From assembly GCA_030141605.1 (NCBI GenBank), contig JAQGDQ010000041.1, positions 682,001 to 746,000 of the forward strand: a stretch of 64,000 nucleotides of DNA, written 5' to 3'. This DNA comes from Tubiluchus corallicola. Taxonomy: Eukaryota > Animalia > Priapulida. The position numbers and the translations under genes are program-made. Below are positions 14,301 through 45,578 of the stretch, in pieces. Below the pieces are notes generated by a model. It was not told the origin of the DNA and made no database searches. It saw only the letters and a list, made by a program, of their open reading frames with translations. Within the stretch, counting starts at the first letter, position 1. Every line of letters begins with the position of its first letter.

Positions 14301-17300
14301 TTAATCGCCTTATTCATGACCAATTAATTTAATAATCCTCTTATCTGCAAATCAGAGTGAAAACCAGAACTAGTCTACATAAAAGAAATTTATCTAGTAA
14401 ACTGCTTATTACGCTATGAGCTCTGGAACATACCGTCAGTTATGGCAAGGTCGCCAAATTTCCTTTGTGTAATAGTAGCCATTTCATGATCCATTAATGT
14501 AAATGCATAATTCACAAGCGCTAAATCATATGGTGTTTCCAATGTGTCCACCTTTGAAGCTAAATAGTCAGCAGCCCTTCTGATTGCGTCTTTAAGACCA
14601 GAAACGTCTATCTTGGCAATACCCTATACAATTGAATTTAAATTGTGATTTGATAGTGAAAAGGAAATCTTTCATACTTGTTGTATATAAGGTACATTCA
14701 ATTACAAGATAAACTAATGTGCAACTTCATTAAAATAACATTTGCAGATGCAGTTAATTATACGATTAAAAAGTTACCTCATCTTGCATGTTTTTATCAA
14801 CTTCTAACAATGATATAAGAGTGTATGCAGAAAGAGCAATTCCTTCGCTAGCTTGCCCCTATAACAAAAATGGTATCAACATTATACAAAAACCGAAAAA
14901 TGACATATGTAAAAGCAGAAGTTACTCCATACTAAGAACCACTGCACTTTCTTTCAGAATTGTATATTCTGTCAACAGAGTTTGAAGTTTTTTGATATGG
15001 AAGCCTGGTGCCAAATAGCTTGCTGGCAGCACATATTCACTCAGAGAGCAAACTATATTTACGTATATTACCTGCATTTCTTTGTGTATCACACGACCTC
15101 CCACTTCCTTAAATGCTCCATCTGCTTGCTGATGTCTAACCAGCCATGATACTGTTCTGGTCATAACTTTAGGATCAATGAAGAGATACTTGTCAGCTTG
15201 AGAGAACGATTTAGCAACAAATGCTGTCAACCTAAGAAAATAAAAATGGTTCTGGAACACCCACTTTCAGTGTAACACTACTCTTATTTGTTAAAAAGCA
15301 TGTGTTAACTACAGTAAGGCTAACTATTAAAAAATGCTATTCGATGAGCACACGTACATAGCACCAATTTTAACATCAGCGGAAATAGGAGAAATCAGCA
15401 ATTCAAACTAATTCTGATGACTGTTCTGTAGAACAGAAATAGGAGATCATGAGAATTTCAAATATTATCTGGTCAAATAATAAACTTCATTGTCAGCATT
15501 ATAACCTGTTATGTAATTTTAACTCATTTCTATTTTCGAATTGTCATTTTGCAGTTCAAAGAAATGCAAGGCATGTTATTGCTAAATCTTTTAGTAACAT
15601 TGGTACTCAACTATCTCTATAATGCAAACAACCTATAATATTATGAACCTTATTATACATCTGGTGTTTATCTGCAAAATGTCCAAACCTGTGGTACATT
15701 TAACATAATGGTAAGCCTTCTTGTAATAATCAGACTTTCCTGGGCTTTCCTCACATAGAGTGAATTTTGCACATTATTCTTAGCTTTAAACAAGATATAA
15801 AGTTTCACGAAACAATGTAAAGAATCATCAAGCCTTTGTTTTTGTTTGCACTTACCATACGCTTCCATAATCATCACTATTACCAAATGCACTAAATGAT
15901 CCATCTTCTCTTTGGTATTTAAGCTCCCGTTGATACCCTTTAAAAACGCAATATTATTTGTAAATGAATGCAACTAATTCTCTTAGCGAGTTATAGCATT
16001 AAGTAAATCGAATAATAAACAAAAACAAAAATTTTGAACAAGCTAAGTGATAACTCAAAACAATGTGTGCTACTCTTAGCCATTATAAGAAATAATGTTA
16101 AAACCTACGTGTGCTAAAAACTGGACAAATCTTAATAGCTTACCTATATCCATAAATTGTTTGGTTTTAGTTTGAATATCAGGAGTGTACTCATCAACAG
16201 CTACGAGGTAATTGGACACGAAAATATTGGGAGCAAACAAGACCATATTCTGTTCACCACATCCTGTCGGCATACGAATCAACCTGTCCAAATTCTTTAT
16301 TGAAGGTCCCATCAAATCTCCTATAACGGATACTTCCAATCGCTCAGAACCTTCAATGATGTCAACAAACCATGGTATTGTAGTCCTAACTTTGACATTA
16401 TCTTCCTGTGTGAGATCTACAAAGTGAGCTTTATTGAAATAGCGAGTGACTCCCTCAGGCTGAAATGAAAAAGCTGATTCTTTATTCTGATCAAGATTAA
16501 CTGATGTGAACTGCGTTGTCTACGTATTAACACTAACTATACCAACAAATCCGAATAAAAATCAAAATAAGAACTAGATTGTACCTTCACTCGAAGATTC
16601 TTTCTAACAGCGTCAGCCGCTGTTTCAGTTTGTCCGCTAATTTTCAGTGATATTTCTCCAATAACTAGAGGTTTGATTCCAAATAAAACAGCAGTTGGTT
16701 CTCCGGCTGGTGCCTACATAAATATTATCACACATTAATAGCCATTTGACACATTTATAGTACACATATCAATTTTAACTTCAATGAGATACTAGACATA
16801 CCAAATAATGTTAAGAACGTTACATAAATACCTTTTATAACGTGTACAGTACCTTGATTGTTTTGCTTCTGCTGTCGAACTTGGCAGAGCTGGGCACACC
16901 AACGTGTTCAAACGTTTCCCCACCACCGCCTAGTGTCAGGAAAACGTTTGTGTCATGATTTAGGTAGTTAAAGACCAGAACTCTGATAAAGACGTCCTCA
17001 CCACGAATAACAGAGTAAGGAAGGTCTAGTTGAACGAAAAATGGTCTTGATACTGTAATCTAAAATATATAAAAATGATATTTTAACCGAATTAAATCGC
17101 AACCAGTTTTTTGTTTGTTCTAAACCGAATCAGAATCAAATACCTCAATTTACATAAGGATAATTTCGTTTTCCTCGTGTACTAATTGCTAATTGGGCAG
17201 CCGGGTAGGCTCTAGAACTTAAAATATCAATTTGGTACCCAAAATTCTTTAAAATATAAGGTACTTCATTAGTCTTTTTTCTCGCAACTGGTTTATTCTT

Positions 17301-20300
17301 GAAATTACTGTCTATGATATATATATATATATATAGTGTTACGAAGGCGAAATGCCCTTTATTATCTTCCCCCTATACACGCCCCCCCCCCCTAGTATAT
17401 GGACGCTATAGCCAGTCTAACATTCGCCGGTTTCGTACACATGGGAGCAGTTGCGTGAAGAGACGCAAAGAGCTTCCTGATCTGCTATCGTCTCAAAGAA
17501 GGGGAACAACGGTGCTACGTTAGTTGGTGCAGTCCTTACGAGCCTGCGGACCTACTCCAGCCATCTGGTTGAGGAACACCCACCTTGCAAGGGAGACGCA
17601 CGTACACGAACCCCAGGAGTCTCCAGACCGCTTTCTGAATCTGGCCGGGACAGAGCCAGCTCTCCGAGCCTCAACTACAGTCATTTCTTAATTCTTTTTG
17701 TTTAAAAAAATTTGACACAAGCCTTTTTCGTAAGCGTTATGCTCTTAAAATGGCAAAAACGTTTTAGGCATAACAGACATTTTATACTCCCGTAAAACTT
17801 GTAAATCCTGCGTGCTTCATTCTGGTTCGAGGCCGAACCATTTTCTGTAGAGGACGGCAGTGTTACGAAAGCGAAATGCCCTTTATTTTCGACCCTCCCC
17901 CTCTACATTGTGATGGTTTCATTCATTACGAAGCCATTGCATATCAGCGTTTCATAACAGCTATAAAGTAGCCGGTATGGAATGGCCTCGTCGGTTCAAT
18001 GATACACACACATGTATTTACATCCATATAGTGGATACACATAAAGCATACATATAGGCAGTAATTTCAAGAATAAACCAGTTGCGAGAAAAAAGACCAT
18101 AAACTCTGTAATGAGAGTAAAGTGCCTTACGTTTTAAAGGATTTTGGGTATATATATATGATGTGTATATGCGAATGTTAAAACTAATTTTTGGGTTATT
18201 CACGAAGTAACTCTATAATGTCATCAACACTATGATGTTGTTGTCATCTTCGGTCTTCTTGTTGTTCGTGCAATGACGTCGCAATAGAGTTACTCTGTAT
18301 TTTAATTTTTTGCAAAAAAACTGATCCTTGCCAACACTACATGGTGTTCTGAATAACGTATCCAGGCAGTTGGACAGTAAAATCATCAATAAGCGAATAA
18401 TCCGATGCCTCGTATTCTTGACTAGTTTTACATGTTTAGCCATTAATTATTTTTAAGATAAAACTATATACAAATAAATGGCGAATTTATTTTGAACTCA
18501 GTTATTGCAATTAGTAATAAACGCACCTTAGCTGTTTCTTCTCCAATTCCCAAGCCATACGTATCGCTTATAGCAAATGCACTAGCAATCCATGACGTAA
18601 TTGTATCCGGAACGTTTGTGCTGATTTCTGTAGAGCCGTCAGAGCTAAGAAGTCATAAAAATAACTATTATTGTTGAAAGTAGCACCACTAGTAATTTGT
18701 TAACAATTGTCGTATTTTGTAAAATCACGAAAAATTAAAAAAGCTTCTTCTTAAATTTTGACGTGTCTATCAAGATTTAATTAAATTCATGTTAAAAGCA
18801 AAAACTTTAGTATGTGCTTTTTTCGAAAACACGATAAACATAAACATGAATTGGCATTTGACGTACGTAACCAGACACAAATTCGTCATGCTAAATTATA
18901 ATTAGAGCATTCAAAAGTTATAATTTGTATGTATCACAATGCAATAATTTTTCCAGTAGTTGAAACAGACAATGTGATGTGTTAGTAAGGAAGCCAAAAC
19001 GATATCTACTATTAGCAATTAAATAGAGATAGTTTAGAAACTGTGCGTTGTTAGTGTGCTAACCAAGCCGAAGCTAGATTAATAGAACACAGATGAACTT
19101 AACAGCTTAACTAAAGCACCGCAAATTTTAATTAGTTTTAGGTTTCGTTAAGTATGTAAGAGAGAGAGAGCCACCCAAGACTATACTAAATAACCGCATA
19201 CACGGGTGCATGAAGAAGGTAGAAACAGCCAATTGTTCATTTTTGTCAGTACTACACTGGTGTATTAATAGTCTTGTTTTAAGAAATAGTTCCTGCAAGT
19301 AAGATTGTATGTAATGACTCTGCCTGAATTCCACCTTTAGCGAACATTATCATAATACGTGTACTGAAAACCGCTTGTTCCATATTGAATAGAACTACAC
19401 ACATCTACGGAGATTACAAAATCACCAAAATTGATGTTAACTCGTCAATAACTACCCAGCATCTGTTTCAGTCCAGAGCCACGTTTCTGGAAAATTGCTT
19501 CGCGTCTGTTTTGGTTTCAGCAACTGCTTTGGTTTACTTTCAGAAACAAAAACATCAATTTGACCAAGTGCATCACTACCAAAAGCACCAAGAGAAATAT
19601 CCGATAGTGGCGCAAAAGCGAATTCCGGTTGAAAGTCAAAGTCAAATTCAAAGTCAAATTCTGGTCCAATTTCTTCAGGAATACCTGGAAACGAAGATAT
19701 CGCGATAATTCAATCTCACTTACCGAGCACCTTCCCATCCCAAGTTTTTAATTCTCTCCTGTGTTTGAAAGTGTTTACTTTCTTATAATATAATTACCCA
19801 GATTTGTTTCAGTCCAAATATACGTTTCTGGAAAATCATGGCGAGTCTGTTTAGGTTTCAGGAAATGTTCTGGTTTATTTTTGGATTTTTTACGTAGGCC
19901 TATGCTGTCAGAGAAAGCAAACGTACAGGCAAAAGGCTGAGGCGCAGCGGCAAAACTTGCAGCTACAACAGTAAATTCCGGTTCGAACTCCTCAACCTCA
20001 AGTATTGAGTATAAAATATCTGGTTCGGTGAACGCTCTTCGGTGAGCGGTGAACAAGTAAAAGAACGCTCTTGGAATCAATTAGTCTTGCACTGCATGGT
20101 CTGCACCGGTCTCATTTTACCCCACTTTCTGATATACCTCTATTCCCGAGAGACTGACGGGTGCATTTTTTTTAGATGATTCGTAAATTTAATGCATGGC
20201 GAGAATTTCACCAAGGCGGCTAAGATTTTGGGAGAGCGGTTTCGAGTTTGCTTTGCTGTCACTTCTGCAGCGCATCCTTAAACTCATTTAGTCCACAAGC

Positions 20301-23300
20301 AGCCTGCAAGAAAAACGTGCAATTCACAGTGACCCGGGGTCCGTGTCTCCGTTTACAGTTCCCGTTTACATCTAGGTAATATAATCGAGGATTCTGCCCA
20401 AAATTATAAAGAGTAAATTTACATCTCGGAATGTCCGAAAACAAATACATTTTGTTTGAATCATTCAGTCTCACTTATAGGGCCATTTTAATATGCTAGT
20501 TTTACAACCCATGGATGCGTTTTGATTCTGATAGATATACTGCTTACCCAGCTTTTGTATCAATCCAAAGCCAACTTTTGGGAAAGTTGCTTCGATTTTG
20601 TCTTGGTTTCACTAACTGGTTTGAATCACTTTTAGTGAATCTTTAGACTGCGCTATATGAGCAAAAGCCAGAACGCGAGGCCGTGGCGCTTTCCTAAAGG
20701 TGGCTGGAAGTAAAAAAGACCTGCTGCAGTATTTCAAGGTGAACCTAACCCGCATTTCTTCTTATTTCTCTTTGAATTTTCTGATGAAAATGGAAGCGTG
20801 ACACTGGATATTTCGTGGGAACAAAATTTCCTGAACTAGAAGCAATGATCTAAATTACTTATCCAAAATCCATATTTTGCATAAAATTAATAACAATTAC
20901 CTTTGTACTACCAAACGTGGCCTTTGCTTTGGCTTCCCTAAATGCTTTATCAGTTTATGATTTCAAAAACCAAGCATGGCCACGCGTGAAATCTGGTACC
21001 ATTTGTAGGATTGCAAGACATTTACTATGGATTTAAATGTAAATGCCACATGCATACATTTGAAGCAGGGTTTGCTCATCTCAAAAGTTTGTAAGAGTAA
21101 TTCTAGTCAACTCATATAGCTCGACGAACACGGTCTTTATTCAAATATCATTGATATATCGATCTATTTCAGACTTTTCCGGCACGTTTTTGGGCCAATC
21201 TCATGGATTCAAAATGAAGGTGGTAGGAGGGAACGAAGTGCAAACGAGTCTAAATTAAATAAACAGAGCTCTCCAATCCAGTTCCAATTCTTTAAAGAAA
21301 ACTTCGCAGGCAAAATATTATTAAGCTTTTGTAAAAAAGTTTTGTGAAATGTGTTCTCGCCTGGAGGCCGTCTTTACAAAAAAATCTGACCAGTTGTTGA
21401 CTTCAGCAAATCAGCAGGTAATAGAACATAAATCTCATAATAATACAATTGTATTCATGTTTATCATTCAATACATGCACATGGAACAATATTTGAGAGG
21501 TGGAGCATGTTTTTATCAGAGACTTTAGCGCAAGGCTTAACTTCACTTTTCATTAAAAGAACACTCTCTACTTCAACGAAGATTTCACCAAATCTGTACG
21601 AAGCATGACGTAAAATCTGTTTTAAACTTGTGTACGCCACGTGAAATCTAAAACTTTACAGAGTAATTGGTGCAGGCTCATGCAGACACGATTCCTTTAT
21701 GGAGGATTCTGAAGAACAATGTATTTACGCTTCTTTGGGTATGTGAAAAAATGTTAAAGAGGAAGAAAAGGTAATTTTATAGTATATCCCAGAAAACTTT
21801 CTATACAAAGTTATGTTACTCAGCATTACTTTCACCTGCTTGAAAGACGTATGGTTACTGGAAGAAAATTCTTAGTTATTCAAAGTAAAACGTCCTGACT
21901 CATCTTCCCAGTTCGCACCACTGACTCGCTAAAACGCATATTATTAGCATCACTGAGAAAATAAAGTAGGCCTAATTTAAACTCTTGCGTGGTTAGTTAA
22001 GTGTTCACTAGGAATACTTTGATTATTTTTTCGAAGTTTACTCAATGTTAACTAAACTTCTTTCAAACGATTTACGTTAAAATGCCCGACGATCGTCCTA
22101 AGAGTTTAAAATTTCAAGTTTTATGTAGTGTTGCTACTAATACAAGCTGTGGGCGTATTACGGCAGTACGTAAGTGATACAAAATTTCAAGACAAATTTT
22201 TAGCTTCATGTAAGTAAACGGTTTTCTTGTTCTTTAGTTTATCTACCCCACACGTTCATGTACCAAAAGTCAAATTTCTGAAAAGCTTTTTGCAGAAATT
22301 TTGGTTTCAGTGAATTGTTTCGAGTTCGAGGTGGAGAGACAGAAAAAACCTCTGTCATGCTGACGCTCGAAACAGAATCAGCAGACTCTTCAAGACAACT
22401 ATTAATATATTATAAATCATAAGAGGGATCCATTGTCAATCACACAGAAACTAATCATATTTATGCGGCAGTAGGTAAAAAAAATCAATAAGCGTTTAGT
22501 GATATTTTAACTGATCATAGGAAACGGGGGCAAAACCATGACGATCGCGATATTACGAATGTAGGAACTACACAAGCTTAAGTAATTTTGCGCGCACTTT
22601 CTTAAACAATGACCGTTGGTCTTTAAACAAGGAAAACGTGTTGCAAAACAGAAAGATCGCGTAGCCGTTAGTAACTTTCGTTAGGTGGCTGTAATTTAAA
22701 TAAATTCCACTGGTTGCCAAATCACAATCGCATGGCTAAATAAAAATTGTGATGCGATCAACGTAGTTATAAATGTACTTAAATACTTGTAGGTATATGA
22801 AACATTCGCTGTTTTGACTAACCAAAATTTGTTTTTTAATCTACGAGTGCGGGTTATACTGGAATCGGATATTTTTTACTAGTTTCACTTGACGTTTTAT
22901 CGAAGTTGTTTCAAAGCTGGCCAATGCAGTGCTTGGTTATTTGGAAGATATTAGGAGAAATTGTTTAAATGAGCAAGAGGAAGTAGATTTTGATGAGTCT
23001 GAGCAGTGTGAAAAAGCAGCAACTAAATTGTAACCGAAACTAAAAAGGATCGTGTAACAGTGTCTGTTTCAAAATCACTGGTCAAATTACGTTTAAATAA
23101 GTGAAATAAATAGTGACGCAAATCTTTGCTACTACGTTTCTTCCACCTACCCCACAAAGGTATTGAGCCAGAGCAGCGTTTCAGGAAAATCTGTTCTAAT
23201 CTTCTTTGGGCGCTGTAAATCTTTGCCAGTTTGTGGCTGGTCAAATGGATTCTGCGCAGTAGTAGGGAAAAATGTTGTTGTAGTAGGAAATGGCCGACGG

Positions 23301-26300
23301 GTAGCAGTAAAAGTAGTGCGTCTATCTAGCGAAAAATAATCCCAGTCTCTGGTAGCTGCCTCTGCAAAACGTTATTGTTTTGTAAATGGACGTTTTTATT
23401 GGAATGCCTAACGATCTAGAGATATAAACGTGCTAAAAGTAAGCTGTTCAATGAATAACAAGCTGTGCAAACATAGCAGCTGCTAACAAGAAACTTGAAC
23501 GCGCCAAATCTCGGGCAGTAGACTGTAGTGCCATTTCTTCGCCGCTAGGTTTAAGATCTAGTTTCTTTGTACAACTTCTGTTATATTAGAAGTGACTGTA
23601 CTAATAATGACGTTTTTTGCAATATGTGCAAGGAACAAGCTGCACAATAATGCTCGGCATAATACTAAAATTTAAAGGCACAAATGCATGCAAGTAATTA
23701 ACATAAGTAGGTTAATCAGCATGATATGTAATGACAGTTCACAACAAAACACTCAGCTAAGTTAGTACCTAAATGCATCTGCAAAACACATTACTTAAGT
23801 ATAACTTGAAGTTCAGAAAGCCATTCGGTACATGCAAATCAACACACAACACTCTTCTCACCCAGACTCAGTGTCAATCCACAACCAGGATTCGGGGAAG
23901 TCCTTGCGCACTTTCTTTATGGGGACAACTTTCTTGTTGCTAGCACTCTCGGTTCTTGCGCCTTTAAAAGCACGAGCAACGGCTACACCAGCACCAGGCG
24001 CTGGCCTTTGAGCCATAAGCGGACGTTCAAAAATAGGCTGGATCGCGTGGTCAAAGTAAAAAATAGGAGGGTGTAGTTCTGAAACAGAATATGTTGGCAA
24101 CAACAATTTTTCAAGCTTTAAATTTAATGCTAAAATAGTAGTAACATCTATTCGTTGTCTCCTGGAGCACCAATCGCTTCCTCATAATTCAAAAGTTGGC
24201 TAATGGAAAGATAGAAAAATTAGCATGGTGTCAAAAATCAACTTCGTGTTCAGGCTGCGCATGAAATTTAATGAGCACTTCATCTTTTTGCTTCGGAAAA
24301 TTCTAGGTATTAATAAATTTAATAGAATTTGGTACTCGGAAAGCGGGTACCCAGCACTCAACAAGCAGGGCCTACACGATGTGTATGGTTGTGGGAGCCC
24401 CGGCACAAACTTATGGAGCCTTTGAGCCGAGGTAGGTATGACAGACAAAACCGTCCTGAAGCAATGTTGCCAAGGGCCATTCATCCATTTACTGACTAAG
24501 CTCACGTTTGTTTATCTTTGGTTGCTAAGTACCATCTAGTGAGCTAAAATTAAACTAAACAAAATACATTTTTATTAATCTGATTTAATAAATTAATTAT
24601 AACAGCTGAATTGTGTGATTACACTATTGTCTCTCATTAATTTAAAAGACATAAATTGAAAACATAATTTCATTCAATAATATAAAAATCGGTTTTGTCA
24701 AGGTAAAAACTTGATATTGTCAACGAATGTGTCGATGTTATGAAGACAAAGTTTGTAATGTCAAGGTAGAAAATTGATATTGTCAATATAAAGGTCCGAA
24801 AATTGGAAAGTGATTTTTTCATATCATCACCTAATACTCTTCGGCACAAAACTGCACTCTATCACTAGTATTGAAAATGCCAATTTAACGAGTTTAGCGC
24901 GTAGTGTCAAATGCATTTTGAAGTTTATATTTGTATGACTTGAGATATTTGTTGACGTTAATGTTAAAATGATAATTAGTGTTAACCATAGTTTTTGCGC
25001 TCTAACTTCACAATATTAAAGTCCACAAATTCTTTTTCCGCAAAATGCCTAAATGTTAGCTACGGGTCCTACAAATGGCAACTAAATGTAGCTGCGCATA
25101 AGTGCACCATGTTTCATTTAGGATTTGGCAATCTCATCTTCAGTATTTTCTTGATGGCACCCCTCCCCTTACCCATAGTAACAAATGTAATGACTTGGGT
25201 GTTACAGTATCGTCCGATTTGAAATTCTCGACACAGTGTAAAACCATAGTTTCTAAAGCACTTCGTATGGTAAATATGATTTTTAGGGTGTTTCTACACT
25301 AAAAACAAAACTGCACTGTTGACTGCTTATAAAGCTTATGTGCGTCCCTTGTTGGAGTACTGCTCGTCAGTGTGGTCCCCGTTAGTGCCGTCAGTTTAAT
25401 TATGTTTCTTATTTAGACAGACCTGTCAGAACTAGAATTGCAGCCAGTCGAATTAAGACGCATTGTCTGTGATCTTAAGATGGTATACAAAATTTGTCAT
25501 AAAATAGTGGGTTTAAGTTTTGATGATTTTTTCAAGAATGCTTCAAAAAACACTCACTAAAAGACTAGCTAATGTTAATTTACTGCCCTATTGCAACTTT
25601 ATCCGGAACATGTAACATTGTCATTGGCGTAATTGGCTCTCTCCGAATCGTATTATTGTATAAAACGTGTTGTATATGGTATATAATTCATATTTAGGTA
25701 CATTTATTAGGAGCTTTTTAATGAGAGATATTAAATTTTAGGGAATTGTTCTATTTTTGTGCATCTTTTTATGTCTTATAGGATCAGCGTAAGTGCGCAT
25801 GCGCCTACTTATTCTTTCTTTTATACAATTTTACTATATGTATAAATGTCAAAATAAATAAATAAATAATGTATCAGAGAGGCCAACAAACATAACACGC
25901 ATACACATAGATTACAGACTAAGTTACTTAAAGAGATTTAGTATTTTCAAAGATTTGGAAGGAATTTCCATGAACTATAGCCCGACTGAGAATTTTTGCC
26001 CGGGAAGACAGATTAGTGTGAAATATAAAACCAGTCAGGAAAAAACCTTTGTCGACAAAACGACGATAATTTTGATCACAAGAACTACCGCTAAACTATA
26101 AACATGATCTTACAAGACACAAAAGAAGACTGACGAGGGGCACGAAAACCCAAGAAGAGAAGGGATTTACTTTGAAGCATAAACCAAGTTAAACCTATGT
26201 GGTGCAAAGATTCGGAGGCGGCGACTAGCACTTCTAATTTACGTCTGTGTATAAAGCGAAATCCAATCATTTAGTCAAGAAAATGCTGCACTCTAAATAG

Positions 26301-29300
26301 AACAAACCTTATGTTTTCGATCAGGACTAGCAGGATATATCTCGCACGCTTTAGCTAAATTCGAACTCGAATCACTATAGAGCATGCCTAAAACCATGCG
26401 CATGCAGCATAGCTTTACTATTCTCTACATCTGAGGCTCTATGGAATATATGCAAACAAGATAAATACGTCCTCTCACCCAGCCGTAGTGTCAAGCCACA
26501 GCCAAGATTCTGGAAAGTTCTTACGCACTTTCTTTATAGAGGCAATTTGGGTAGTAGAACTAACAATGTCAGGTTTTTTGTCGACGGGAGGACCAACTGG
26601 ACCTCCAGCAGGACCTGGCCGTCCTAGGTCTTGAAATGCGATGCCCACTCTCCATCTAATGCCAGGTAGCGCATCGGGACTAGGAGGGCCAGGCAATTCT
26701 TTAAAGTAATAGGGAAGCGGAATGTCTGAAACAAAACATTACTGGATCTTTAGTTAATATTGCAGTAGTTGAGGAGTACGGCTTCCAACAATAATGCACA
26801 ATTGTTCGTTTAAAACTGTTTTAATCGATTTTGGTTTAGATATCGTGTTTTCATGCAATAATTGATGGGATTTATATACAGGTCTCATATACAGGTATAC
26901 TCATTGAAATTGAAAAGTGAACTAGTAAATCATCTTCAACATTTATACACGGGAAGTGATTCTATGATGATGATGATGACCCGTTTTAGCAAATTTATTT
27001 TAGCATCACTACCCTACTGTGCAGTTTTTATTTACTACGGGTAAACCTATCACTTATTTCATTCCCATACAAGGTTATACGCCCAGAGATACCTGACCTA
27101 AGTTGGTTTTTATTTTTCGTTTTCCTCCTTTAGTCCTCTTCACTGATGTTGATGGCTGAAAAAAAGATTACACTGATGGCTGAAACTCAGTGTAACTGAG
27201 TGAAAGTTTAAGTTTTTCATTGCGTAAGAAGCATTTATCATTTGGTAAACCCCCAATTTCTGTGCACCATACGCGCATGAGAATCGGATTTTCTCAGCTA
27301 AACTATGACCTTTTCTCTAAAGGCTGTAAAGATAATAAGTGTCATCCAGTATTGTCGATTTGAGTCTGTTGAGCACTTCTTCTTGCACTGCCCATTGTAT
27401 CAGCAAACTAGGGTTGTTATGTTTGATAAACTGAACGAAATACTGCTACCTGAAAACCTTAATATGGCTGTCTTGTTATGAACTGTTGAAGTTGTTATAG
27501 TTTGGAAAAGATGAATTTAATTATGTTGTTAACTGTAAAATATTCTAATGTATACATAACTTTATATTTCGTACTAAGCGCTTTCAGTAGCTTTTTTCTG
27601 ATATGAAATGCGTCAGTCTTAAATATTCGTAAATTAATATTTCTTAACTGTCATTTGGTACTAATAGCTAATGTAATCTTGTAGTGAAACTTGTTAAGCT
27701 TGTGTTGATAGAGTCAATGCTTACTGTAAATGTTTTTCTTAATAGTGTATATATTTTGTTGTGGTGAGGATCCTGAATCATGTTTTTTTAAACTGTCTGA
27801 TTCAATCCTATAATAAATTATGTTTAAGCTAAATTGTAACGAGTTAAAATTTTTTAGCGAGTTAAAATTTGTATATATATAATCTCAGGAACAGGAAGCT
27901 TCTGTCAACACAGAATGGAATCCAGCATTTTCCCTTGGCTGTTGCAAAGTTTCAACGGAGACAAGATTCTGTAAAATGTTTCGTACTTTCAACAATCGCT
28001 AAGGGAAGTTTTCTTGTTAGCGCGAAGATATTACTGCTGGCCCGGGATTCATCGCAGCAGTGAGGTTAGGCTTATGATACATTGATACATGATAGAAAGC
28101 GTCCAGCGTCTGGCTGCTCGCTTCCAGCGTTCAGCGTTCACTGGGTAATATTAATAATGTGCAGTAATTGAGAGCGTCTTAACAACATCCCTCACTGTTT
28201 GGTATGGCGCTACCACGCAGGGAGATCGCAATGCTCTTAATCTAGTTGTTAAATTATAGGAATTGAACAGCTATGAGTGAACAGCAATCTATGGCATACG
28301 AGGAAGAATGAGAACATACAAGTATTCCAACTTTCATCATCAAATATGCTATTATTATTAATAATATTATTATTATTATTATAAAGTGCCGAGAAAACGT
28401 AAAAAGCGTTGGAAGTTTACAAAGCATAATTATTTAAAACGCTCCGAACGTATTTCTGCAGGTATACATGTTTTTAAAGCATAATTGTTTATTGTAACTC
28501 ATCAGTAAAAAGTTTTTATTTAACTTGGTTTTAATAGACTTTACACTTTAACTTTAACTAATAGGTTTCAATATTTGCATGATGTTACTAGCCACTATGG
28601 TTTTTGTTTGCTGATTTGTTTGCATGCTTATTTTCCATTTGTTTGTTTATGAATTTATGATGAAGTATAATCTCAGGGCGCAAAGTTTGTCGCTTATCAG
28701 TGAATCACTTGAATTATATTATTTGTTAAAAAGTGTGCTAGATAAGAATAAATATCCCAAGAATTTAAAGAATTCGAAATTTGAAGGAAAAAGCGAAAAT
28801 CCATGGCCCTACAATTTGTGGTTTTTAGGTGTCTATTTTGACCCCATAGTTTTGACTGACAAATTAGCGCCTGCTTGTCTCGTTATCCAGTGACAATTAA
28901 TCTGTGTTAGAAAAGCAACCACCACCACCACCGGTCATGTTAGTTTAAATTTCTAAATAGCAATAATTGCGGTGCTTATTCTGGCTAGCAGAAGGCTGAA
29001 CCTGCAAAGTGAGGTGCGAGCTTCTCACCTTGCTGTTGTATCGACCCACAGCCAAGATTCTGGGAAGTTTTTTCGTATTTTCTTTATTGGGGCAAGTTTT
29101 CCTGGTACTGAAGATGTTTCTGTAGCCACTTTTGGAACCTGTGAACTGGGACCTGAACCTGCGAACGAGAAGGCTAACTGCGGCAAGGCACCCCCATCAG
29201 CAGCACCGAAAAATAATTCTCTCCGAAATATAGGCCATATAGGACGTTCAGGGATCTCTGAAATAGGTTTAGAAAATGAATAATTTAATAAAAATTTATT

Positions 29301-32300
29301 CTAACCAAACCCGATTAAATAAAACACCGGATCCAATGTACATATTTGGTTTCGGGAGAAATAATGGTTAGTACCACAATTGCAGTAACCTTTGATGCAA
29401 TAATAATTTGCTGAACTGCAATTATCCGAACCGCCACCAAAAACAATTTTAACTTTATAGGAATATATATATATATATACGTGTGAACTGTATAAAAATA
29501 ATGAAAATATCGTTTTTTGCTAGATTATATACGAGCTGGCGCTTTTTAGTGGGGAAGCATTTGCCGAATAAACGCACTTTTCTCACTCAAACGGCAAATG
29601 GCAACAGAAGCTACAATGAGACCGTGTCTCTGTCTCCTTTAAAATGTAGTCTACATCCAAAGTTTTAAAAAAGGCTATACCTACCTCTGTATAGGTAAGT
29701 ATCGGTCACAACAGCCAGTTTCGCCTCCCTGAATGTCTCGTAAGCGTCAGAACTGCTGTACCAGTGCCATGGATACAGGATAAAGCTGCGTTTCTTTCTC
29801 TCAGCACGTATGGGGGGACCTCCAGAACGGAGAAAAGGCACAGGCAGACTATCATCGTCGTCAAAGCCATATCCTCTTACGTCATCCAAAACCTGAATCG
29901 AAAAAGAAAATTATTATTAGACGACGGGTTTTTACCAGTAATTACTATATTAGATCTAATCATTATTAGAACGTGTAGCAAATTACAAAAGATGCATTTC
30001 TGTAGACATACTTGATAACTTTGACATAAGATAACTGTTAATAGAGTTTTCAGCCTTTGTCTCACTTGGCCGACAAAGGATTACAACAGACATCCGTGTT
30101 CCCTCTCCTTTTCTCTGATTTACACAGACATTTTATATCAAAGTTATCAGGGACAGAAGTGCAAAGTTTTCTCTAAGTTTTTTCCAAAGCTGCTTTTACG
30201 TGGAGTTTTCGACAGGGATTGCCTTTTCTTCAATTATATAAACTTTAACCAAATTAAGAAGAATATCAATATACATATATAAAGCTTAACTACTTTGCCA
30301 TGGTAGATTATAGACATAGCATTTTTACTACACGTCGTTGCTGCTTGTCAACTTTATTCCGTATATTACATGTATAACCCTTTACAACTAGCAATTCTGA
30401 AGACTCGTTTCGGCTAATTTTTCTAAAACGTCTTTTGAATTTCGAAAAATGATCACAAACTCACCGAATCTGCTGTGATATCATTTCCACCACGTAGTAA
30501 CAAAACTGACTGATCAACTGCCAGTATGCCAATAAAGGACCAAGGTGCTGTGGTGATGTGCAATTTTACTTTGTCTCCTGGCTCAGCCGATTCTTTGTTA
30601 AACCGCAATGCAACCTGCGAATAAGAGACAGCCGTTGATTTGCAATCTCGACAGTGGATTGGGCAAAGGCGGAGAATGTAAAATCCACTTAGTGAATATA
30701 TTACATTTTCCAGCAATGGCATGGCTCTTAATAATTCTAATGCCTATTTTTCGAAATAAGTGCCATCATAGATTACTGAAGGTAGGGCGGTAGGGACATA
30801 GCGCCAAATTATATTTTCTGTAATACAATCCATATAAAGAGAAAATATAACAATTACCTGAAGGGGAAGAAAAGGTAATTTTACCGTATGCCCCAAAGAA
30901 CTTTCCATGCAAACTTATATTACTTAGCATGATGCTCACCTCTGTTTGAAAAACCCATGTAATTGGAAAAGAATATTCTTAATTCTAAAACAAAACCACA
31001 TAATTGTTCATACTTACAATATAAAGTAATTTAAACTTTTGCTTAGTTTGGGAAGAATGTGCTACATATGCGCTGATTATTTTTTAAAACTTTGCGCACT
31101 GTTATCTAAACTTGTTCAAACGACTTACAGTTAAAATGGCTGTGCTTAACAGTCCCCGCAGGTATCTAAATTTACAAGTTTTTCAACGTTATTGCTAATG
31201 CATGCTCTGTATGCAATAAGACCGCATGTAAGTGATACAAAATTTTAAGACGAATTTGCTCAGCTTTATTTATGAAGAGCTTTTTCTTTTGCTTTAACTA
31301 TTACACGGACTAACTCATCAACGTGAATATTAATTTATTACCTATAGTCCTATATCTTCATTTCTGATGGTTGACAGATGGCAGCACTTGTGCCTCTGCC
31401 AAGGAAAATGACGATAAGAGAAGTGGTAAAGAATTAAAAATGGTATCAAGTGTGCTAATGCTAAGTGTGATTTTTCTAATTGCTATTAATAACAATATTC
31501 TTTTCAACTAACCTGGTTGTCAAATCCACCCTGAACTTCAAAGTTAGTTGCATCAGTTATCACCTCTCCACTTCTGTGTATGTAATAAACAAGCATTCTT
31601 GAGCGAGGAGCCATGGCATTGTTTATCTCAATATTGAACTCTTGCTCATTATTTCCCATTGGTACGTAGCCATTGTCTTCAATGTTTCCACGTGATATAA
31701 CCTAACAAAAGGGTTTGTACTTGAAAATGGGCAAGAAGTTCCTCAGATTTAGACAGAAAATTTCAGAGACTGGTAATCGTAATAAAAGAAGAAACAAGAC
31801 AGAATAAAAAGAAATTCGTTCGCTCTCCGTTTTGTCTTCATTTATTCATATATTTATTCATTTACTCATTCATTTCATTATTCTGTCATTCATTTGGCTG
31901 GCCAGTAAGTCAGCCAGTCAGTCGGTTATGCTTTTATTCATTTGTTTTTGTTTATTCACTCACTCGGTCATTTGTTGCTGATTTGTCAATCACTCATTTC
32001 TCACTCATGAGGAATTATTCACTCATTCACTAACGTTTTCACCTTTCTCACCCCATAATTCACAGTGCACCTGCTTATTTTCTGGGCGAGCCCACTAATT
32101 AATCCTTGCTTACCAATTAATTACTTCATTTATTTATTCCGTTATTTGTATCATTAGTTGATTGGTTTTAGACCTGCTATTTAGATTCTTTTATGGAAAA
32201 CTTTCGTTTTAGCTATATAGTTTCCACAAAAATTATCAGAAGGTATGAAATGCGCAAAAAAGTTGAAAACCTACCTGATAATATACTCCGTCGATCACAT

Positions 32301-42810: not shown

Positions 42811-44550
42811 AAACTTGTTTCTGAAATCTTTTGACTAAAATAAGAGTTAAATATGAACGAGAAACCCCAAGGAAACTTATATACAATAATGCATTTTTAT
42901 CAGCGATTCATGGCGATAGTAGGTATATAGTAGTCGGTATTTAATTGTACTTAAAAGGTAATAATGTTAGGTTACGTTACGTTTCTTTGTTATTCTTAAT
43001 ATTGGGCTAAAATCGTGACTGAGTCACTGAACTGTACTAATTATACGTAGCTCAAAGTCACGTTGATGTACGTAGTTAGTAACTAGGTCATAAAGTGCCT
43101 CAGTCTGTTGGCGACTAACTTGCAAAAGTGACTTATACACTGCAGTTATAACATTTAATGTTTTTTATTCGTAAATAGATCCGCTAATTAATACCAATTA
43201 CGCTGGTATTAATTAATAACATGAGACAAAAGTACCGACACATCACCAACTAAGATCGTCCAATTATAGGCTGAGTAGGTGTATCATGTAGTCGTCCCAG
43301 AGTAGCCGTCTACATCTGGCCGAGACTGGAACCTAAAATTCGTCCTCCATGAAGAGATAGTTTACATTGATACAAAAAATGCGCGTGTGGTAAAAAAATA
43401 AATCTATACAGACATATGTAAATGTATACAGACATTTATACCCGCGCACCAATTGTTACAGGCACCTTTTGAGCAGACGTCCTAAACAAAACGATCTTTA
43501 TGACATTTCACTTTATCTGCGGGAATGAATCACTTGGGATATTGAAAAACATTCCCAAGTGTTCTCGTCAGTTTTACGTCATTCAAATTATCCTGCTATC
43601 ACATATGGTGCTATATCGTTCAAAACAGCAAGGAGTGGGCCTAGAATAATTGTCACACGAGTAATGTAAAATAGGCTATTGTACAAAACAAGTAAGTTCT
43701 TTTAACCATAGTATGTGATCATTGTAATATGTGTAATAATATGTGGCACTATGTGCTTATTATTCCAAAAATAAATCTGTTTGGTTTTGTAGAAAAATAC
43801 TAGTTGATGAAAACATAGTTTTTACCAACTAGGATAAGTTAACACATTAAGTTTTGTGTTTTTTGTGTTTTTTAATGCAAATGCATTTTAAATAGCATTC
43901 GGTCAGCCAATACATTTTTGCTGCCCCATCGGTCAAACAGAAACCATATTTAACCATATATAGATCATTAAGCCGATTAAGACCATCAAGCCCATCCAAC
44001 ACATCGATCCTTCGATTTGTTATTGTTCCTTTGCAAACAAGTTTCCCTCCATTTGACCCTCAAAAATACAAATCATTTTTACCAGGATACTTGAATCCTT
44101 CAGTAATAACCGCACGAAGAGCAATAATGGCAAGCACGAGCGCAAGAATTATTAAATGAAAAAGAAACATCTGTGGTTCACTGAGACAACCAACTAAAGG
44201 ATTATGGGCCTATGGGAATAATCGACATAGTAATGGACTAATCAAAAAGTCTACTGGGCGGCGGTCTGAGTGATCAATTCAGTATATTTTATAGAGCGCA
44301 CCCCGTCCCCGTTTTTGCGACGTTTCTTGAAAAACGCATTTCGATCGAATTGGTCTGCGCATATATCTGGGTACAGTTGGAAAACCTGCGCGCCGCACAT
44401 TATTGTCAAAACTTAAAACCATCTGCACACAGCATTCAAGAGGAGAGAGAGAAAATAATTAAAAGTTTGGGGTAAAAGCACGTTCATGTTGTACAAGTTA
44501 AGAAAATCGCTTGGATTTGGTGCTTAGGTTAAAACTTTTGAGCAGTCACC

Positions 44551-45578
44551 ATGACATGGAACTTCACAAGGAACTCAAGCAATACGTATACGACGACAGA
44601 ATTAGACACATTTTGTCATGCGAAATTTTTTTATGTAATTATCTCTTCTCTCCTATTTTTGTTTGGCGTCATTGGAAATATCATCAACATTCGTGTGCTG
44701 TGGCACTCCAACAGACTCCGAGAACTCAGCTACAACTTCCTTCGATGGTTGGCCATTGCTGACTTCTTGGCTCTTAACTTTTGTTTCCATTTCATTCTGG
44801 CCATTAGTAGAGTGTTGCCGGGGACCATCCATCTGGCTAGGTACATTGCACATGCACTTTTTGGACTCTTCGGCTGGTTCACATTTTCCAGTAATTTTTT
44901 AATTGTGTCTTTGACGCTTGATCGCTATCTCGCCGTGTCTTATCCTATGCACGCGAAGACCTTTCGGACTTGGAAGGGCGTTACTGTTGGCATCTGGACG
45001 TGCTTTGTGTGGGCGTTCGTCATCGAACTGCCCGATTTTATCAACAGGAGAATTGAGGAAGCAACGGAACACCAAGCAAACACCACAGTCTACACATGGA
45101 CCTGGAACGATGAAGTTACCCGGACGTCCGTTTACTCGGCATACCCTTGGATAAGGTCCATTTTCGGACAAATTCTACCGGAAGTGTGCGTCATAATAAC
45201 AAATCCGTTGATCATACAAGCTCATCGCCAAGTACTGGCGAGAAGACGTCTTATGAAACTCACGGCAATCCAACGAAAAGCCGCCCTTGAAGAAAAGCGT
45301 CTCTTTACGCTCCTCATAACTGTGTCAGCGGTTTTCATTTTGTGCACAATCCCTAATACAATACTGGGCATCATTACAAGAATGGGAGATGATAGCCTTC
45401 TTGTGGACGTAAGATTCAGCACTTTTCGTATCTGGCAACTATCATATTAATGGTAAATCATGCTGTGAATTTCTATGCATACAGCCTTGCCAGTTCGGTT
45501 TTCCGGCAAAGTTTGAAAGAAGTTTTATCTCGAGATTTGCGGTGTAGCAGAAGACACGTAGAACCGCTACAGGCATGA
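44551..45578 (+). CDS. Intronless class A GPCR, FMRFamide/myosuppressin/sex-peptide-receptor-like; 1-nt frameshift before TM7 (pseudogene or assembly error)
   Basis: The 299-aa ORF has N-terminal N-glycosylation sites, TM1 GVIGNIINI, TM2 LAIADFL, TM3 LTLDRYLAV and TM6 FILCTIP. TM7/helix 8 (ILMVNHAVNFYAYSLASSVFRQSL) continues in the shifted frame from about 45435 to TGA at 45576-45578. Confidence 0.88.

Follow-up and report, generated by a model that had tools for sequence, protein, structure and literature searches.

Competing RNA pairings with a docking site downstream of a cluster of alternative exons have been described for the insect genes 14-3-3 zeta, Mhc and MRP1 and for the exon 4 and exon 9 clusters of Dscam (see the sections concerned in PMC6071210, PMC4691838 and PMC8042237). 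Mutually exclusive exons are likewise found in the bait region of thioester-containing proteins (TEPs), and the part of PMC7016707 devoted to them gives five for Drosophila Tep2, six for the TEP of Chlamys farreri and twelve for Biomphalaria TEP2. The DNA analyzed here (the window) comprises 64,000 nucleotides (nt) of the priapulid Tubiluchus corallicola and covers part of a minus-strand TEP gene, CD109/iTEP-like, in which the same region is variable: eight tandem bait-region exons, A to H, lie between constant exon U and the next constant exon. A short sequence in the last intron of this array, 19125-19108, is complementary to sites downstream of exons A to G, and all these sites overlap on it. 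Judging from the sequence, we lean towards the view that it would act as a downstream docking site in a competing RNA switch that helps to choose the exon. An initial annotation of the window had proposed such a code for A to E, as one not known to have been reported for a gene of this family. The literature that we searched contained neither a pairing mechanism for a TEP, CD109 or A2M gene, the three TEPs named above included, nor an account of how one TEP bait exon is chosen; a prior mention of Tep2, for instance in a supplement, is possible.

The array of bait exons is in itself ordinary, such arrays being known from fly, scallop and snail TEPs according to the same part of PMC7016707. Its exon copies end in a motif of the RxxFPExWLW type. 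Exons A, B, C, D and H are open in frame and each has a length of 1 mod 3; E, F and G are 0 mod 3 long, out of frame and run into early stops. Since the intact exons are all 1 mod 3 long, products that contain zero or two of them carry early stops: a test join of C to D stops at amino acid (aa) 154, and the skipping of all exons leads to a stop at aa 94. The frameshift of E is no assembly error, since a contig of sequencing run X2 that covers 22172-23438 is identical there. Another X2 contig is one base longer than the window across 19509-22191, and F or G may be intact, the frameshift in the window being an error or an allele. The tandem array of exons in one phase is thereby confirmed, with the corrections that E, F and G are frameshifted, that the site of E falls within a repeat and that matching sites, missed by the annotation, follow F and G. 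High-copy interspersed repeats, as seen with blastn and from depth, are present in the introns of the array at 21757-22236, 30861-31296, about 25000-26100 and 27000-28400.

As to the protein, the GCGEQ thioester motif is intact, the A2M-family domains appear in order, and Pfam matches (A2M_BRD, A2M and TED_complement) were found singly in three of the six TEP exons scanned. Exon U contains the sequence RKKR, which we take to be a basic furin-type site. The closest protein matches are bivalve CD109-like proteins and TEPs, the best score being that of an oyster CD109-like protein (42% over 549 aa). The protein search returned no close relative, top identities of around 60% covering part of the query, and a quick tree of 24 rows placed the protein outside the A2M group (support 99) and in no well-supported group.

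All pairing elements of the annotation were found at their minus-strand coordinates, and distances taken from the exon borders confirmed the geometry that it described, with a dock about 330 nt past the last exon and elements 50-240 nt past A to E. More specifically, the 46-nt dock as originally drawn (19126-19081) begins 330 nt past the donor of H, and the elements lie at +52 (A), +120 (B, with a second patch at +37), +79 and +101 (C), +212 (D) and +240 (E) past their own donors. The corresponding duplex energies, calculated with RNAduplex against these 46 nt, are -19.2 kcal/mol for A, -18.7 for B and -15.0 for its second patch, -13.0 and -9.9 for C, -17.6 for D and -18.6 for E. The 11 perfect base pairs (bp) claimed for A are indeed there, and the 11-mer has only two exact occurrences in the 64 kb, namely selector and dock. 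In addition, a second arm (28990-28982) pairs over 9 bp with about 19070-19057, which brings the total to 20 bp; such a two-arm dock is the lowest-energy structure for A only and not for B, D, E or G. The 13 Watson-Crick pairs, six G-U pairs and one bulge of B were recovered by hand (RNAduplex draws 17 bp). The main sites of A to E overlap on 19125-19108, as had been proposed, but the second patch of B and the 8-mer of C use the 3' half of the dock. Selector G adjoins the acceptor of H, and its predicted pairing could therefore also mask H. The site after E lies in a repeat of which the other copy binds less well over the matching stretch (-3.3 versus -12.3 kcal/mol for the E site). Exon D is followed, moreover, by a private stem (23061-23083 with 18977-18952) that does not compete for the core and is matched by 1% of tiles. 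With this stem and the second arm of A, the structure may have several parts. Five changes fall within the 18952-18977 arm in one contig of run X1, which possibly represents a haplotype without D.

The case for a shared dock is carried by the joint fit of the seven regions. In the joint test any 24-nt window of the last intron was allowed as dock and compared with the 280 nt past each donor (85-90 nt for G). For A to G against random 280-nt tiles the best window was that at 19125, with p 0.005 for the mean and 0.0013 for the worst of the seven, and the same window was still chosen whichever exon was left out (7/7). Only one of 316 dinucleotide-shuffled introns equalled the A-G statistic and none of 2867 G/U-matched windows equalled the mean; when the dock was swapped for other real blocks of 771 nt, 14 of 299 were as good by the mean and 7 of 299 by the worst-of statistic. 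With window sizes of 16-40 nt on the sense strand the best window was always located at 19125-19128, with p 0.03-0.07 for sizes besides 24, and over all nulls and window sizes the joint p for A to G ranges from 0.003 to 0.07. Exons F and G, taken together as held-out exons, fit the same core; among 1000 shuffled docks 3 fit them equally well, and 3.7% of tile pairs drawn at random reach the same level. The regions past 15 constitutive donors (placed by eye) average -12.0 kcal/mol, versus -16.4 for the array. Whole-region cofolding fills the core in five of six regions (A to F), versus 50 of 224 random tiles. A model with an upstream dock, run at one window size, gave no signal (p 0.54 for the mean and 0.33 for the worst-of statistic). 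We therefore regard the joint complementarity as a real but moderate signal.

Several results weigh against the docking reading, among the pairing statistics as well as among the contigs treated below. The expectation that the pairings would surpass shuffled controls holds for A to G jointly but more weakly for A to D alone, for which 19 of 316 shuffled introns were as good. A to D alone give p 0.018-0.30 by window size and 0.02-0.43 over the different nulls, and other real blocks did equally well in 88 (mean) and 129 (worst-of) of 299 cases. Likewise, if the dock may lie anywhere in a block, 157 of 299 blocks do as well for F and G alone. One of the nine antisense controls reached p 0.034, which indicates that the nulls may be lenient, and several window sizes were tried. 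Taken one by one, the sites are inconspicuous except for A (and F), and those of B, C, D, E and G are equalled by 9-21% of random tiles. The annotation had expected all of its sites among the top duplexes of the whole pre-mRNA: over 14,787 windows of 26 nt A does rank 3rd and the second patch of B 19th among separate sites, but the main B site and those of C, D and E fall outside the top 25. When accessibility was included in a cofold (7123 windows), A ranked 1st (-19.7 kcal/mol), the F site 3rd, D 12th, E 19th, B 22nd and 24th and the G site 25th, with the named C site outside the top 30. A scan of 7388 windows of 50 nt put the region from 26443, i.e. selector B, in first place. A G-U-aware local alignment left the named sites outside the top 22, and when G-U pairs were disallowed only A and E surfaced. 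In the whole-region cofold B, C, E and F show ordinary total binding, and only A and D exceed the null mean by at least 1.5 standard deviations. The annotation had furthermore taken the G-U character of the deviations as a sign of selection on RNA pairing. As independent evidence this argument is not supported and it is partly circular, since G-U-rich best duplexes are common by chance: G-U accounts for 22% of the pairs in random best duplexes, and in 33 of 176 of these for at least 30%. Finally, since three of the seven exons (E, F and G) are frameshifted and the E site is located in a repeat, selection on their selectors is doubtful.

Splicing across the array was observed in contigs of run X6, which carries the same species label, is about 92% alike to the window and was taken as RNA by guess. 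One transcript-like contig joins U to A and then the donor of A (29029) to the constant acceptor (18644), thereby skipping 10,384 nt with GT..AG ends at a depth of 639; this junction of A is the sole full skip junction seen, and nothing in the contigs points to H as the default exon, as the annotation had supposed. In a second contig (depth 128), complete exon D follows immediately on the final 90 nt of C. Exons A and D are the ones covered to both ends by X6 contigs; none of these contigs matched B, F, G or H, which says nothing about their use. Provided that X6 is RNA, splicing of one exon across the array does take place, but exclusion would not be strict, and a strictly exclusive choice is not supported. 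In run X2, exon U, exon A and the constant exon are found at about 5 depth units, and therefore further copies of the gene are possible.

The contigs of X1 and X2 reveal a second haplotype or paralog that differs at about 7% of the last intron. Five of its changes are located within the 46 nt (at 19107, 19104 and 19103, an insertion after 19102, and at 19096), and among the changes listed none falls in 19128-19108 or 19095-19017. As the middle of the dock differs between the haplotypes, the dock shrinks from the 46 nt of the annotation to a core of about 18 nt. The invariance of this core between the haplotypes is not significant, 142 of 457 shifts being likewise free of changes. With the dock of the second haplotype, binding is at least equally strong for A, B, C, D and G and slightly weaker for E and F. 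A DNA joint in X2, from 26154 to 19538 at about the depth of one haplotype, removes C to G and the 5' part of H; read by hand, it leaves a short in-frame exon of the H type and retains the dock. Depth alone ties this joint to the second dock allele. The number of bait exons seems to vary between haplotypes or paralogs. A diverged contig of run X5 aligns from 23096 up to 22925, the last base of selector D, and then stops, which is a weak hint. None of the relatives' sequences reaches the dock, run X5 included, and the comparison is confined to a single species.

Given these results, it is possible, though in our opinion rather doubtful, that the core is a G/U-rich, promiscuous 18-mer that fits by chance, with exon choice left to splice-site competition and protein regulators and with nonsense-mediated decay (NMD) clearing the products with zero, two or three exons. 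The uniform 1 mod 3 length of the intact exons and the early stops of the C-D and skip-all joins are in line with such a view, and so are the C-D contig itself and the failure of A to D alone in the swap null. Moreover, the core window is the best partner for 9% of random tile pairs, and TGCATG motifs, presumably of the RBFOX type, occur after B (26406) and C (23836 and 23692), out of 20 on the whole minus strand. What it leaves unexplained is that the seven-exon statistic reaches p 0.003-0.05 in three different nulls and that F and G, although held out, fit the same core. Products with four exons, moreover, stay in frame and are beyond NMD alone, a point made in part of PMC6071210. A second and distinctly less probable explanation is that the shared dock has been over-read and that only the pairings of A (20 bp in two arms) and D (the private stem of 21 bp) are real, as individual stems that shorten the intron like those of the multi-stem MRP1. 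Both exons surpass the null in the whole-region cofold and are those covered to both ends in X6, A ranks first out of 7123 and few tiles match the stem of D; however, this stem comes to about p 0.07 once the seven exons are allowed for, and the most significant statistic of all is the worst-of-seven (p 0.0013; 1/316 shuffled introns), which needs all seven to fit. That the shared motif is a relic of tandem duplication, one arm of an ancestral stem-loop that was duplicated along with each exon and now decays without function, we consider very improbable: close to the donors the introns after B and C resemble each other, as do those after F and G, matching sites persist past the frameshifted E, F and G, and part of PMC6071210 proposes that such patterns arose by duplication, but the selectors lie at +52 to +264, where the introns have no other likeness detectable with blastn, and neutral relics should have been lost there.

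For the competing switch that we prefer, a sequence of events can be proposed by analogy with 14-3-3, Mhc, MRP1 and Dscam exons 4 and 9. Pairing of the selector of a given exon with the core would loop out all later exons and leave the donor of that exon about 560-780 nt away from the constant acceptor, where otherwise up to 10.4 kb would separate the two. The core would be held by one selector at a time, and a stronger pairing (A, then D, F and B) would result in more use of the exon. The switch alone would leave the exons upstream of the chosen one unsilenced, and this, together with the weakness of the C selector, would explain the C-D product. NMD is the likely back-up, by which products with zero or two exons would be removed. 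The outcome would be a set of TEP isoforms distinguished solely by the protease-exposed region that precedes the thioester chain.

Table 1. Exons of the TEP gene and putative pairing elements around its bait-exon array, in the order of transcription (positions in the window).
Feature	Position	Strand	Remarks
Constant exon U, before the array	29685..29892	-	AG/GT borders, open frame, ends in phase 1; joined to A in an X6 contig
Variable exon A, 229 nt, in frame	29029..29257	-	
Candidate selector A, strongest partner of the dock	28967..28990	-	28977-28967: 11 perfect bp with the core
Variable exon B, 247 nt, in frame	26479..26725	-	
Candidate selector B, two collinear patches	26341..26442	-	26442-26428 (3' half of dock) and 26359-26341 (core)
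Variable exon C, 217 nt, in frame	23862..24078	-	Spliced to D in one X6 contig
Candidate selector C, two patches, weakest of the set	23748..23783	-	Equalled by 21% of random tiles
Variable exon D, 211 nt, in frame	23151..23361	-	X6 contig spans the whole exon
Predicted private partner after D	23061..23083	-	21 bp, 12 of them consecutive and perfect, with 18977-18952, -26.8 kcal/mol
Candidate selector D	22925..22939	-	
Decayed exon E, 105 nt, frameshifted, with a poor acceptor	22247..22351	-	
Candidate site after E, within an interspersed repeat	21984..22007	-	Repeat 21757-22236, second copy 30861-31296
Exon F, 156 nt, out of frame by one missing base in the window	20548..20703	-	
Candidate selector F	20263..20296	-	Rank 2/7388 (50-nt windows), rank 3/7123 (cofold)
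Exon G, 222 nt, out of frame by one missing base in the window	19798..20019	-	
Candidate selector G, 15-36 nt ahead of the H acceptor	19699..19720	-	9/1000 shuffled cores as good
Last variable exon H, 229 nt, in frame	19456..19684	-	
Putative docking core, common to the seven selectors A-G	19108..19125	-	
3' half of the 46-nt dock, pairs with second patches of B and C	19081..19107	-	Second haplotype differs at five places
Constant exon after the array, phase 2, Pfam A2M	18527..18644	-	Borders and X6 joint
Thioester exon, GCGEQ, Pfam TED_complement	16142..16459	-	

Some features of the surroundings of the core may be added. A dock-like copy, alike in 14 of 18 positions by eye, is located at 19181-19198, 75 nt upstream of the core, and a looser one lies downstream of it at 19056-19075; the same selectors also pair with both copies. 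The core and the two copies carry none of the listed haplotype changes (9 of 457 shifts as good, the segments having been picked post hoc). A small hairpin with a C(UUCG)G loop at 19050-19080 directly follows the dock and falls in a block without listed haplotype changes. The dock region shows no unusual local folding (z -0.85 and 0.51). A comparison with Rfam gave a single match, which at 22.8 bits versus a cut-off of 87 was rejected.

Outside the array, the window encodes a rhodopsin-family G protein-coupled receptor in a single open reading frame (44542-45450 on the plus strand; Pfam 7tm_1, E 6e-23). A metagenome scan yielded five loci, none of which has a bait-exon array. One of these loci (L002:5604-9623) is intronless, has 67% G+C, is likely bacterial and encodes a full-length, eukaryote-like thioester protein that is about 30% identical to a bivalve TEP over 1400 aa. 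In A2M-like isoforms of amphioxus (P0159, P0156, P0013 and P0149) two adjacent alternative bait-region blocks combine in a 2 x 2 fashion.

The choice of bait exon is of interest considering that the passages on TEPs in PMC7016707 describe mutually exclusive bait-exon isoforms that are induced in a pathogen-dependent pattern in the scallop, and up to 12 such isoforms in the snail host of schistosomes. The core and the seven named selectors provide the exact bases to mutate, as well as a pattern to seek in genomes with many relatives, for instance at Drosophila Tep2, oyster CD109 and Biomphalaria TEP2. If the switch is real, a secreted immune effector would be added to the few genes known to have competing RNA structures, and the locus would put to the test the proposal, made in part of PMC6071210, that exon duplication copies the arm of a stem. 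A more far-reaching idea, which we put forward tentatively and consider unlikely in its full breadth, is that the TEP/CD109 bait-exon arrays of invertebrates are run by a competing RNA code. In Tubiluchus its multi-part dock would survive the gain and loss of whole exons between haplotypes, the immune repertoire could vary by deletion or duplication with no need for new splicing factors, and the TEP genes of oyster, scallop, snail and fly should contain the same code.

The closest known systems are the insect clusters with a downstream dock. As in those, the exons are tandem duplicates and a site after the last exon pairs with a site after each earlier exon through one core. In the insects, however, the dock was found by cross-species conservation, together with covariation and mutational tests, whereas the present case comes from one species and from moderate statistics on the sequence. 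It also differs in that the gene encodes a secreted thioester protein, that three of the eight exons are out of frame and that a two-exon product is seen. Membership of the locus among the downstream-dock clusters is thus not established, though its anatomy works alike. In the part of PMC6071210 that treats such clusters, TepII is counted among those with three or more exons but not among the genes with reported competing structures, and the same mechanism is proposed there for other clusters. A search for words beginning with 'Tep' found none in the available text of the 2024 review PMC11802352 or of the PGRP-LC paper PMC6191721.

In Dscam's exon 6 cluster (see the parts on it in PMC11802352 and PMC6071210) selectors likewise compete for a single dock, but there the dock is upstream, a geometry opposite to that proposed here and for which we obtained no signal. 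Drosophila PGRP-LC (PMC6191721) is an innate-immune gene as well in which isoform choice proceeds via competing RNA pairings, yet these concern the 3' variable region of a receptor rather than an internal exon array of a secreted effector. At the protein level, the oyster CD109-like isoforms have one variable block, which ends in FPETWLW....G just before SDG/RDG and therefore shares its 3' border with the array exons of Tubiluchus. The mechanism is of a type already known, and the TEP case extends this type rather than opening a new kind.

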